61,501 nucleotides of DNA, from positions 1 through 61,501 of the IMG/VR virus record IMGVR_UViG_3300028007_000002; one strand, written 5' to 3'. Of the stretch, positions 38,310 to 41,155 are shown in pieces. The stretch is from a virus (taxonomy: Duplodnaviria > Caudoviricetes). The notes beneath the pieces are model-generated. The model saw nothing but the letters and a program-made list of their open reading frames with translations, searched no databases and was not told the DNA's origin. Made by a program: the position numbers and the translations under genes. How positions within the stretch are numbered: position 1 is the stretch's first letter; each line of letters opens with the position of its first letter.

Positions 38310-39070
38310 CAGTCCGCCTGCACGGGAAGTATCTGAGGGCAAACAGCGGTAGGACGACGGAGGGGAGCTGGGGTCTCCCACACGCTGACCGGATCGCCTT
38401 CACGCCATCGCTCATACTGTGCGAGGATGCGCAGTCGGCCGTACCCGTAACCGGTCTGATGTCCAACACCGCGATACTCGCCGAACCGAAACAGCGTCCA
38501 GACAATGGCCTGCTGCTCAGGCTCAAGTCGCCAGAGATCAAAGCGCACCAGCCCCAGGAATCCCAATCGTCGCTCTCCGGCGGCCCCAGTCCCCGGACGC
38601 TGCAACAGATCACCGACTGGCGCAACCGCGATGCGGCGCAACGCGACGTCGGGCAGTTCGGGCGTCTCTAGCCAGCCGAGCGCATTCCACCGTAGGGTCA
38701 GACTTCGGTAGATCTTGCTGTACTCGGGAATTAGATGATCGTTGTCGCTGGTCCGAAATCGGGTCGGTGTCGTGAAAGCGATCCAGATCGCTTTGCCGCC
38801 CGCCGGCTGACAGAAATCAGCCATGCGCACCCGTCGAATCAGCCGCGCGGCGGGTTCACCAGACAAGAGCGCCTGGGCGATGTCGTCCTGGCAGGCTATC
38901 ACATCCAAACTGGTTTGCCGTCGAACAACCGAGTAAGGCCGGACTTCATCCGGGTGATGAAGTCGCTGGGCGAGATCGAGATCGACCCGACCAACCGTGG
39001 AAATCACGCGCTCGATCGGGTCAGATTGATAGCCGGGGTAGGGCAGGCGGACAACGGTGATAGCAGTCAT
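38309..39070 (-). CDS. cas6: Cas6 endoribonuclease (non-I-E type)
   Basis: RPYSV, IAFTTPTRFR, P...IYRSLTLRWN, GFLGLVRF, G-loop GVGHQTGYGYG. Confidence 0.88.
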   Translation of the reverse strand: MTAITVVRLPYPGYQSDPIERVISTVGRVDLDLAQRLHHPDEVRPYSVVRRQTSLDVIACQDDIAQALLSGEPAARLIRRVRMADFCQPAGGKAIWIAFTTPTRFRTSDNDHLIPEYSKIYRSLTLRWNALGWLETPELPDVALRRIAVAPVGDLLQRPGTGAAGERRLGFLGLVRFDLWRLEPEQQAIVWTLFRFGEYRGVGHQTGYGYGRLRILAQYERWREGDPVSVWETPAPLRRPTAVCPQILPVQAD

Positions 39071-39795
39071 TCGAGACGCTCCACGGCAAGATCGCGCTGA
39101 GTAGCCAGGTCGAGGGCCCAGGCCACCAACCGAGGATCCCGCTCCATCCCGAAACACCGCAGGCCGATCGACTCAGCGGCAATCAGGCTAGTGCCCGCTC
39201 CGAGATAGGGATCAAGGATGTCCCCCTCACGGTGAGTGTTCTGGATCAGGCAACGGATCCAGTCCTCGGGTTTCTGGTGGGCGTGGATCGCGCGGGCATG
39301 AAACGCCGGGAGCTGCTCGACGTAGAGATCGCTGAGCACATGGCCCGGTGTCTCGTGGCGCGAGGGATATTTCGCGGGATCACCGTAGCGTCCGAAATCA
39401 CGGTAGTCCTCTCGCTGCCCGTACCAAAAACAGAGCTTCATCCGCTGCAACGGCCGCCCCGAGCGCGGCCAGGAGGCGACGCAGTCCCAGACAAAGATCC
39501 AGGCCGGGGCACCGAACAAACGGATCGTGTCACCCGCCCACCGCCCATCGCAAAACGCCAGAATGGTCCGCCATTCCCCGGCGGGCGGGGTCAAACCGGC
39601 CTCCCAAGGAGGATCGAATATCAGCGTGGACGGACACGCATCTCCCAGCAGCCTGGCGACCTGGTGCGGAGCTGTACTGTCACCACACAGCACCCGGTGC
39701 TGGCCGATCCGCCAAACCTGGCCAGGCTCCACCTGCCAGCGCGCTTGAGCGAGGGTGAGAGCGAGATCGCGTCGCGTCTGGGTCTGCGTATTCAG
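39067..39795 (-). CDS. N4/N6 amino DNA methyltransferase (beta-class motif order); start uncertain, ORF open to 39873
   Basis: GQVWRIGQHRVLCGDST, DPPW, HQKP, ILDPYLGAGTSLIAAE, GMERDP. Confidence 0.82.
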   Translation of the reverse strand: MNTQTQTRRDLALTLAQARWQVEPGQVWRIGQHRVLCGDSTAPHQVARLLGDACPSTLIFDPPWEAGLTPPAGEWRTILAFCDGRWAGDTIRLFGAPAWIFVWDCVASWPRSGRPLQRMKLCFWYGQREDYRDFGRYGDPAKYPSRHETPGHVLSDLYVEQLPAFHARAIHAHQKPEDWIRCLIQNTHREGDILDPYLGAGTSLIAAESIGLRCFGMERDPRLVAWALDLATQRDLAVERLE

Positions 39796-40544
39796 GCGAA
39801 TAATCCCACCTCCGGGAAGCGGGTGAGGAATTGCTGCCAAAGATCGGGATAGTGCAGCTTCAGGTAAGCCCACCGGCCGTGACGCCGGTTCGTCTCACCG
39901 GCCCAATAGCTGATCCGCCGGTCGCGCGCCGGGCGATCGCCCATCACGTCATAGGCTCGGTTGTAATCCACGTTACGACTGACCAGGTAGGCCCAGATAT
40001 CGTCATGGGTCCAGCGGCCGACCGGCAACGCCTCCCGGATGCCCTCCCGCTGGTTGAAAAACAGCAGGCCCCGCGTTCGGACCAACATCCGGCGGCCGGG
40101 GGATTCGTCGCCACGCAACCCCAATACCACGGCATCGTAGTAGCGCTCTGCCAGCAACCGGCGCACGGGCTCATAGACGGTGCCCCACATCGTCGCGTCC
40201 TCGACGCCCGGTGCATCCGGCCCGCCGGCCGCGGCGAGGATGTCCAAGAAGGGCCGGCAAGGAAACTTCTCGACCGGTCGCCCGGCGGCGATTAGGACAT
40301 CGAGTCGGGCGCGTGATTCGGGGAAGGCGCAGTCGGCATCGAAGTAGATCGCCGGAACCGTGGGCGCCTGCCGCCAGACCAGATCCAGAACGACTTCCGA
40401 ATCCTTCCCGGTCGAGTACCCCACGTAGGGATTCCGGGTATCAGTCAATACCCGCTCAATAACCGCGTTCGCCTCGTCGAGCCGGCGCGCAAAGGCCCGC
40501 GTCCGAGCGTGGGCCAGAAAGCCGGCTCGTTCCAACGGCGTCAT
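39792..40544 (-). CDS. CysH-like PP-loop protein (PAPS reductase family), as in type IV-B loci
   Basis: GYSTGKDS, LGLRGDES..R, PVGRWTHDDIWAYL, YNRAYD; no C-terminal ECGxH motif. Confidence 0.88.
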   Translation of the reverse strand: MTPLERAGFLAHARTRAFARRLDEANAVIERVLTDTRNPYVGYSTGKDSEVVLDLVWRQAPTVPAIYFDADCAFPESRARLDVLIAAGRPVEKFPCRPFLDILAAAGGPDAPGVEDATMWGTVYEPVRRLLAERYYDAVVLGLRGDESPGRRMLVRTRGLLFFNQREGIREALPVGRWTHDDIWAYLVSRNVDYNRAYDVMGDRPARDRRISYWAGETNRRHGRWAYLKLHYPDLWQQFLTRFPEVGLFA

Positions 40545-41155
40545 GACGCGGCCGGGCTCCAGGTCTTCGCCTGTCGCACGTACTGCCCGTAGAGCAGGGG
40601 CGGACAACCAATGACGCTGGGCAGGTCGAGGCGATGCTGGACCAGACTCGGTGACGTCTGCCAGATCGATTCTGACTGGTGGGCCAGAAAGTCTGCCAAG
40701 AGCACGTCCGACCAGTGACGATGTTCAGCGAGATGCGGCTGAATCCACTCGACGAGCCGGTCGGCCAGGTCTCGGGTCAGCGCCACCGCCTGGTCATTAC
40801 AAAATTGGCCGGCCGGCTGCTGCCACCAACGATCACCACGCGCCAGGGCGTCCGCGACCGATCGGCGCTGGGAGTAGAAGCTGACGGCCCGCGCTCCGAG
40901 GTCCTGAGCTTCTCGGAGTCGTGCCACGGCACGGGCCGGGAAATCGTCGCAGAGCAGGATGTCGTCCTGAAGGACTCCCACCCAGGCGGCGCCGGTCTCG
41001 ACGCCAGCCTGCCAGGCCCGCAGCATGGTGACGCGGTTTCCTGCGTGGTCAGTGTCCTCGATGACCCGCAGGCTGGGGATTTGCGCCCGGAGGAACTCGA
41101 CCGACCCGCACCGCTCCGGGACGGCCATCATGACCCAGGCGCACGGGAGGCTCAT
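40541..41155 (-). CDS. GT-A fold glycosyltransferase-like protein
   Basis: WVGVLQDDILLCDDF, SD.LL, PSLVQH; ATGA overlaps at both ends. Confidence 0.7.
   Translation of the reverse strand: MSLPCAWVMMAVPERCGSVEFLRAQIPSLRVIEDTDHAGNRVTMLRAWQAGVETGAAWVGVLQDDILLCDDFPARAVARLREAQDLGARAVSFYSQRRSVADALARGDRWWQQPAGQFCNDQAVALTRDLADRLVEWIQPHLAEHRHWSDVLLADFLAHQSESIWQTSPSLVQHRLDLPSVIGCPPLLYGQYVRQAKTWSPAAS

Follow-up and report, generated by a model that had tools for sequence, protein, structure and literature searches.

A nine-gene type IV-B CRISPR-Cas operon occupies the minus strand (44076-37626) of the IMG/VR virus record IMGVR_UViG_3300028007_000002, a linear sequence of 61,501 bases that was analysed over its entire length (hereafter the window; CheckV completeness 77%). 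In this operon, which reads csf1-cas11-csf2-csf3-GT-cysH-like-methylase-cas6-cas6e, the gene of a glycosyltransferase (GT) of a mostly viral family lies between csf3 and the gene of CasCysH, a PAPS-reductase-family ATP pyrophosphatase with a PP-loop. In other phages, with or without csf genes, GTs of this family are repeatedly found beside PAPS-reductase-family PP-loop genes. In our judgement the evidence gives an even chance that the GT and CasCysH, probably together with the methylase, form one modification pathway, which would be delivered by ParB-like proteins in most phages and by the Csf ribonucleoprotein (RNP) here. The locus looks like a new variant of type IV-B, with its novelty lying in the genes that accompany the backbone.

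Pairing of the glycosyltransferase with PP-loop enzymes

Queries built from the GT alone (peptide patterns) retrieved six metagenome loci and 19 viral loci; every one of the 16 viral loci that were new carries a PAPS-reductase-like open reading frame (ORF) within ~1.5 kb of the GT, at G+C contents from 31 to 67%. When contigs filed twice are collapsed, a PAPS-reductase-family PP-loop gene is present within 5 kb of the GT in 23 of 26 distinct GT-bearing records, the three exceptions being L011 (a 3.1-kb contig), L014 and the fusion phage L102. Among 20 GT loci chosen for clustering, 18 have a PAPS-reductase-like ORF no more than 4.5 kb away on the strand of the GT and 15 have ParB-like ORFs, which are found in none of four loci that are IV-B only. 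The usual PP-loop neighbour of the GT is an IbrA-like gene in the company of ParB-like genes, and in four of 17 phage IV-B lineages it is CasCysH; the four non-CRISPR PP-loop proteins that were scanned combine PAPS_reduct with DUF3440 and are of the IbrA type. A cultured representative, Microbacterium phage Hendrix, encodes a GT-family gene, a glucosyltransferase, a methyltransferase, a GNAT protein and a PAPS reductase in genes 154-158.

Members of the GT family are also found fused to other enzymes. P0137 (464 residues), encoded in a complete phage of 43.5 kb, joins a GT (residues 2-215) to a PF01555 methylase (residues 229-459) that is homologous to the methylase of the window, and P0021 is fused to a GNAT domain. 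Duplication within the family is seen as well: paralogues lie side by side in L010 (7588-8809) and L011 (1481-2714), and the database members P0027 and P0032 each unite two GT domains in one protein. A further neighbour cluster ('F3') was dropped as evidence, as it is heterogeneous, with weak class-I methyltransferase matches in only two of the five ORFs scanned (L090 and L096; none in L009, L088 or L010).

The conserved GT/PP-loop pairing is absent from the searchable literature, supplements aside, and is apparently new. The string 'glycosyl' does not occur in the texts of PMC8175902, PMC7038947 and 10.1101/270033, whose supplements (for example, Data S1 of PMC7038947) may list such neighbours. 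Literature searches returned no paper that combines a PAPS reductase, a glycosyltransferase, phage and DNA modification, and none on the IbrA/IbrB-like module together with a GT; of three papers that contain both a type IV term and 'glycosyltransferase', two use them in unrelated passages.

The glycosyltransferase in type IV-B loci

To place the GT among type IV-B systems, loci were collected via CasCysH and scored with our own profiles, giving 17 phage lineages with near-copies counted once. A lack of conserved linkage to csf genes elsewhere had been named in a preliminary description of the window, made from its sequence, as evidence against a functional association; what was found for the GT is the opposite, as it lies beside the PP-loop gene in four of the 17 lineages. 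The arrangement differs among the four, being csf3-GT-cysH in the window, csf3-cysH-GT in L012/L022/L024, cysH-GT-orf-cas6 in L028, and the IV-B genes followed by a ParB-like ORF, an IbrA-like gene and the GT in L059. The L059 locus (2752-12192) contains three PAPS-reductase-family ORFs, one upstream, one the CasCysH within IV-B and one the IbrA-like gene beside the GT, showing that both module types can coexist. On the Csf2 tree the presence of the GT requires four changes among 19 rows, and in the tree of GT sequences those of non-CRISPR phages enclose the L012-type GT (97/98 support). The well-supported branches of this second tree require that the GT joined IV-B loci independently at least twice. 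Beyond phages, 39 plasmids match CasCysH, and a search of genome contigs with CasCysH found only three distant loci in proteobacterial metagenome-assembled genomes, none with a GT.

The predicted enzymes

The GT of the window has no Pfam match, and PF01755 (Glyco_transf_25) is reached by only five of 61 family members at E<=0.01. It matches phrog_854, annotated 'glucosyltransferase' (E-value 3.7e-12), and an exhaustive search places 480 cluster representatives in its family at E<=1e-3 and 52 at E<=1e-10; neither cultured phages, searched by tblastn with the window GT, nor viral contigs, scanned with this single protein, gave a match. An AlphaFold2 model based on an alignment of 61 sequences has a predicted local distance difference test (pLDDT) score of 96.4. 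Foldseek superimposes this model best on mimivirus R655, human COLGALT1 (a GT25 enzyme) and GnT-I, and at E<=1e-3 the model matches 99 PDB chains, of which those listed are without exception GT-A or nucleotidyl-sugar enzymes. Its Atlas structure neighbours are mostly viral. Asp64-Asp65 and His174 are invariant or nearly so in the 61 family sequences. By the Pfam result the GT is a distant relative, and not a member, of GT25; from the model and the alignment it is predicted to be a metal-dependent GT-A enzyme with intact catalytic DxD and His residues.

CasCysH is recognised by the Pfam model PAPS_reduct (PF01507) with 50.4 bits (cut-off 22.5). It retains the PP-loop YSTGKDSE, in which Ser44, Gly46, Asp48 and Ser49 are conserved across 20 CasCysH sequences (SxGxDS); its final 100 residues are free of cysteine and so contain no motif of the ECGxH type. 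The CasCysH profile matches PAPS reductases (1.9e-22), CysD (8e-16) and FAD synthase (5e-11). Two better-known enzymes were considered and rejected. CysH proper, the PAPS reductase, is excluded by the missing ECGLH-type cysteine and by equivalog models that score 35-43 bits against cut-offs of 154-254; DndC is excluded because TIGR03183 reaches 25.5 bits against a cut-off of 290.4, in the PP-loop region only, and the published analysis, in the part consulted, likewise distinguishes CasCysH from DndC (PMC8175902). That IV-B loci contain a CysH-like gene with a PP motif and without the cysteine is not new: as far as their accessible text extends, earlier papers report each of these points along with a proposal of AMPylation (PMC8175902, PMC7038947, 10.1101/270033). 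A complex prediction for CasCysH and the GT returned a score of 0.00; its controls were not run, and it counts neither way.

The methylase matches Pfam N6_N4_Mtase (PF01555) with 33.5 bits (cut-off 26.7) and phrog_498 at 1.2e-21. Its IFDPPWE motif (DPPW at about residue 88) precedes DPYLGAGTS (LGAGTS at about residue 224), an order of motif IV ahead of motif I that marks the beta class. In the other IV-B loci found it is not conserved; ORFs of the N6/N4 type follow CasCysH at a distance of 1.3-1.6 kb in L006/L007 and on a Gloeobacter plasmid, and a figure legend of 2018 names an N6-MTase near IV-B. On these comparisons the methylase is less tightly linked than the GT, and its best link is the fusion on the GT side, P0137.

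Organization of the operon

The nine genes (Table 1) are closely packed. The junctions csf3/GT, GT/cysH (ATG at 40544) and methylase/cas6 (ATG at 39070) are all ATGA overlaps, csf2 and csf3 overlap by 13 nucleotides if csf3 starts at its ATG at 41904, cas6 and cas6e overlap by one base, and a perfect hairpin (~37590-37625) follows directly after cas6e. The one unclear junction is the 5' end of the methylase, where ATGA coupling is lacking: a start at the GTG at 39873 would give an overlap of 82 nucleotides with cysH, and one at the next in-frame GTG, at 39732, a gap of 59 nucleotides. Nine genes on one strand with overlaps of 1-13 nucleotides and a terminal hairpin are far more than chance would produce. 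The preliminary description had reported the ATGA overlaps of the GT with csf3 and the cysH-like gene, a CysH-like protein that keeps STGKDS and lacks a C-terminal ECGxH motif, and a DPPW methylase after it; the overlaps, the translation of the CysH-like gene, and the motif and Pfam match of the methylase bear out all three, and the coordinates it gave also hold.

Assignment to type IV-B and the Cas6 genes

The profile of the csf2 family, comprising the window and 14 relatives, finds the Csf2 of the type IV-B complex (PDB identifier 7jhy) as its best match with an E-value of 5.4e-45 over nearly the full length, followed by IV-C Cas7c (3.7e-32) and IV-A Csf2 (5e-14); the match of the window Csf2 to TIGR03115 is weak (27.5 bits, cut-off 130). 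The remaining backbone genes have no match in Pfam or NCBIfam. Csf1 and the Cas11-like protein are named by position and a few jackhmmer links: Csf1 is linked to the ORFs preceding csf2 in the IV-B loci L021, L022, L024, L026 and L036 (E-values of ~1e-73) and weakly to the locus of the JS623 plasmid (L105; 4e-04), and the Cas11-like ORF, which sits between csf1 and csf2, is linked to L036 (3e-52). For Csf3, jackhmmer gives links to the ORF that follows csf2 in 18 loci and in the JS623 plasmid (5e-42), and phrog_34599 is matched as well (1.4e-08). Neither a DinG/RecD helicase nor Cas10 was found among the nine operon genes in Pfam and NCBIfam scans. By its predicted proteins, then, the locus is of type IV-B, atypical through its two Cas6 genes; of the description of IV-B as having neither Cas6 nor array, it is the absence of an array that applies to the window. 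L036, whose Csf2 comes nearest to that of the window (41% identity), has the order csf1-cas11-csf2-cysH-csf3 (5945-9580) and no GT. In L021, L022, L024 and L026 the matches to Cas11-like and Csf2 proteins fall in one frame of ~490 residues (5717-7192 in L024), which suggests a Cas11-Csf2 fusion.

The two Cas6 genes downstream had not been mentioned in the preliminary description. The first matches PF10040 (51.7 bits, cut-off 25) and TIGR01877 with 26.9 bits, below the cut-off of 58.65; the second is a Cas6e, matching PF08798 with 179 bits and TIGR01907 with 88.5 bits (cut-off 45.2). The window Cas6 shares 49% identity with that of L028, where the order csf2-csf3-cysH-GT-orf-cas6 is followed by an array of four 29-nucleotide repeats with 32-nucleotide spacers (11366-11609). 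This geometry is typical of type I-E. The spacers of L028 have no match among the analysed loci, and a TnpB/Cas12f-like OrfB_IS605 gene (11629-12951, minus strand) lies directly after the array. No array was found in the window, whose record is 77% complete, with TRF, with direct-repeat scans at two stringencies, with an I-E-type stem pattern or with the L028 repeat at three mismatches; a Cas6 scan of viral contigs returned nothing. Cas6 genes in IV-B are rare and not new, because 12 instances were published as rare exceptions (PMC7038947) and a preprint of 2026 reports a type IV locus that, in a phage, combines Cas6 with an array (PMC13317609). On a plasmid of Gloeobacter morelensis, pGMOR1 (L106; NZ_CP063846.1, 72523-85221), an annotated Cas6/Cmx6 lies between csf2 and csf3 of a IV-B locus and a cupin gene follows CasCysH; about 4 kb further on, a C5 methylase adjoins a second PAPS-reductase-family gene.

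A possible modification pathway and its alternatives

In the pathway that we propose, csf1, cas11, csf2 and csf3 would provide the IV-B RNP backbone, CasCysH would spend ATP on the adenylylation of a substrate (its relatives CysD and FAD synthase act in this way on sulfate or phosphate, and other PP-loop enzymes on nucleobases), the GT would add a sugar and the methylase a methyl group. In most phages the pathway would be encoded beside the terminase, along with DNA-binding proteins of the ParB type, and in IV-B-only loci the Csf RNP would take the place of ParB; because the RNP would replace the absent ParB genes, the likely substrate would be nucleic acid, most probably DNA held by the RNP. 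As the window is without an array, the guides would stem from arrays of the I-E type in the host, processed by Cas6 and Cas6e, or from an array in that 23% of the phage which the record lacks. A three-enzyme nucleic-acid modification pathway tied to the RNP had been put forward in the preliminary description; its GT and CasCysH part has gained from the linkage across phages, and the GT-methylase fusion favours the third enzyme, against which stand the closest relatives of the window methylase, outside IV-B.

A number of observations weigh against such a pathway. The GT is missing within the available DNA from 13 of the 17 phage IV-B lineages (four of these loci being incomplete), tblastn of the window GT against 72,556 plasmids gave no match, and the GT profile found nothing in three plasmid IV-B loci (0/3); because most phage lineages and the plasmid loci lack it, the GT is dispensable for IV-B in general, and the loci at hand are few and partly related. 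GT, IbrA and ParB genes cluster near the terminase, and their adjacency could be partly positional, and in fusion phage L102 the PAPS-reductase-like gene lies about 11 kb from the GT-methylase gene. The nearest viral relatives of the window methylase, at 29-31% identity, lie outside IV-B loci, and the same phage encodes two further DNA methylases. GT25-like enzymes usually glycosylate lipopolysaccharide or protein, the Atlas neighbours of the GT include fusions to sugar-nucleotide enzymes (NTP-transferase and epimerase domains), and PHROG and Pfam scans of the window showed neither a hydroxymethyl-base gene nor one of the TET/JBP kind.

A further step, which we regard as doubtful, would make type IV-B an RNA-guided writer of a bulky nucleic-acid mark. 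An ancient modification pathway of many phages, with a PP-loop adenylyltransferase, a GT-A sugar transferase and at times an amino-methylase, would normally be directed to DNA by ParB-like proteins, some phages having exchanged ParB for a Csf complex guided by CRISPR RNA (crRNA). If this were true, CasCysH would be the long-sought effector of IV-B and the product an adenylylated, glycosylated and/or methylated base at the target of the guide.

It is unlikely, in our view, that the GT and the methylase are ordinary phage accessories working independently of IV-B, the methylase perhaps against restriction and the GT on envelope or virion proteins. The GT is GT25-like, with lipopolysaccharide, collagen and N-glycan enzymes as its best folds, and is absent from most IV-B loci; the gene cluster of Hendrix, with its second GT, methyltransferase and GNAT, looks like glycan tailoring; and the methylase, which is not shared with other IV-B loci, has company elsewhere in the phage in the SNF2-N6/N4 methylase fusion and the C5 methylase. 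Independent accessories would leave unexplained the ATGA overlaps that tie the GT to csf3 and cysH and the methylase to cas6, as well as the PP-loop neighbour of the GT in nearly all records, its repeated entry into IV-B and the P0137 fusion.

Rather improbable is a small-molecule pathway, in which CasCysH would adenylylate a phosphorylated metabolite to yield, for example, a sugar linked to ADP or a nucleotide signal that the GT would use or tailor, so that the product would be a donor or a messenger and not a mark on the target of the RNP. The company of ParB-like proteins or of the Csf RNP and the fusion to a DNA-type amino-methylase point to a polymer as the substrate, and no gene for a messenger sensor or effector was seen in the operon in the Pfam and NCBIfam scans, against the matches of the CasCysH profile to CysD and FAD synthase, enzymes that attach AMP to sulfate or phosphate, the GT fusions to NTP-transferase and epimerase domains, and proposals of second-messenger or AMPylation roles for CasCysH in the available parts of two papers (PMC8175902, PMC13676074).

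Still less probable is a capture of guides, with Cas6 and Cas6e cutting host pre-crRNA that is loaded on Csf to disarm the host CRISPR or to reuse its spacers and the three enzymes modifying the captured RNA, an idea to which the two Cas6 genes without an array in 61.5 kb, the heterogeneous RNA bound by the solved IV-B complex (PMC8175902) and, in the accessible portions of their texts, published sponge and scavenging proposals (PMC7038947, PMC8175902) lend some weight, but which sits poorly with the same GT/PP-loop pair in phages that have ParB and no RNP, with the array of the relative L028 and with a record that is only 77% complete and may have lost its own array.

The proposed pathway of GT and CasCysH bears on the one common CRISPR-Cas subtype to which reviews and papers of 2025-2026 (PMC12669027, PMC13676074) still assign no function. 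CasCysH is widely seen as key to IV-B and is without a known partner; a conserved partner such as the GT, at times fused to a methylase, narrows the chemistry that can be tested, and phage Hendrix, a harmless phage in culture with the same gene set, could serve for work at the bench. Should the pathway mark nucleic acid at sites chosen by a guide, it would be a natural RNA-guided epigenetic writer.

The phage and its genome context

By its genes (PHROG and Pfam scans), the record is a temperate siphovirus, from soil, with a replication module and a portal protein that is 30-35% identical to those of actinobacteriophages (Table 1). Its two integrases belong to different families, one being a tyrosine integrase and the other a large serine recombinase that abuts the csf operon. 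DinG is the hallmark of type IV-A and yet a DinG/XPD-family helicase is present in this IV-B phage, among Rad52-like and replication genes. Three HNH endonuclease genes are dispersed over the plus strand (36660-37115, 1017-1646 and 54554-55063), the first just past the end of the csf operon. The stretch was found in five soil-metagenome DNA sequencing runs, of which two may be where it came from, and no RNA sequencing run containing it is listed. In four soil-metagenome runs, near-identical contig pieces were recovered, with no joints and no version lacking the GT or the methylase; holes in their coverage are no evidence.

Table 1. Genes of the csf operon and other features of the window.
Feature	Coordinates	Strand	Basis or remark
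csf1 (large subunit)	43351-44076	-	First gene of the operon; position and jackhmmer
cas11-like small subunit	42942-43385	-	Position and jackhmmer
csf2 (Cas7), IV-B kind	41892-42908	-	Profile match to 7jhy
csf3 (Cas5)	41152-41904	-	jackhmmer; likely start ATG 41904, longest ORF extends to 42069
GT-A glycosyltransferase, GT25-like, mostly viral family	40541-41155	-	204 residues; phrog_854, predicted fold
CasCysH, PP-loop ATP pyrophosphatase of the PAPS-reductase family	39792-40544	-	250 residues; PF01507
Beta-class N6/N4 amino-methyltransferase	39067-39873	-	PF01555; start 39873 or 39732
cas6 (PF10040 type)	38309-39070	-	PF10040
cas6e (type I-E kind)	37626-38309	-	Last gene of the operon; PF08798, TIGR01907
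Tyrosine integrase	3448-4506	+	PHROG/Pfam
Large terminase	4976-6277		PHROG/Pfam
Portal	6286-7653		PHROG/Pfam
Major tail protein	16911-17624		PHROG/Pfam
Tape measure protein	18752-21859		PHROG/Pfam
Lysin	29965-32004		PHROG/Pfam
Large serine recombinase	44145-45893	-	Resolvase, Recombinase and Zn_ribbon_recom domains; directly upstream of the csf operon, lysogeny region
Repressor	48730-49092	-	PHROG/Pfam
DinG/XPD-family helicase	51997-54378	+	Helicase_C_2, DEAD_2; phrog_2488; replication module, ~8 kb from the IV-B operon
SNF2 helicase fused to N6/N4 methylase	57345-59624	+	
C5 cytosine methylase	60461-61501	+	Runs past the end of the record

Relation to known systems

The type of chemistry proposed here, a sugar placed on the bases of DNA as a mark with an epigenetic or anti-restriction role, is that of the alpha- and beta-glucosyltransferases of T4 and of the base J glucosyltransferase. 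The T4 enzymes have the GT-B fold, and glucosylation in T4 and base J requires a hydroxymethylated base; a pathway to such bases of the T4 or base J type was not seen in the window. PAPS-reductase-family enzymes that act on DNA in systems of self/non-self discrimination are likewise known from DndC-dependent phosphorothioation and from BrxP of BREX type 4; unlike DndC, the window protein lacks the cysteines, and partners of the DndA, B, D or E kind are missing. The phage IbrA/IbrB-like module (PAPS_reduct and DUF3440 with ParB_N proteins, upstream of the terminase, as in L009, L010, L013 and Hendrix) shares the GT family and the PP-loop fold family with the window, and differs in its longer PP-loop protein (~375-430 residues), which carries DUF3440, and in having ParB-like genes and no Cas genes.

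Among CRISPR-Cas systems, type IV-A3 with a Cas6e borrowed from type I-E shares with the window the pairing of a type IV effector with a Cas6e of the I-E type, as described in the available text of PMC7038947 and PMC8175902. Type IV-A has DinG and an array and is without Cas11 and CysH, whereas the csf2 of the window is of the IV-B kind. The closest correspondence is with type IV-B itself, as known from plasmid pMYCSM02 of Mycobacterium sp. JS623 and from the Csf2-Cas11 filament (PDB identifier 7jhy), with which the window shares csf2, a CysH-like PP-loop gene without the redox cysteine and, by position and jackhmmer links, putative csf1, cas11 and csf3, carriage on a mobile element, an operon with neither helicase nor nuclease, and the lack of an array within the window. 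The carrier is a phage here and an actinobacterial plasmid in IV-B of the JS623 type, where the plasmid loci that were checked are without the GT, and relative to known plasmid IV-B the operon of the window is distinguished by a GT between csf3 and cysH, a methylase after them and two Cas6 genes that close it.

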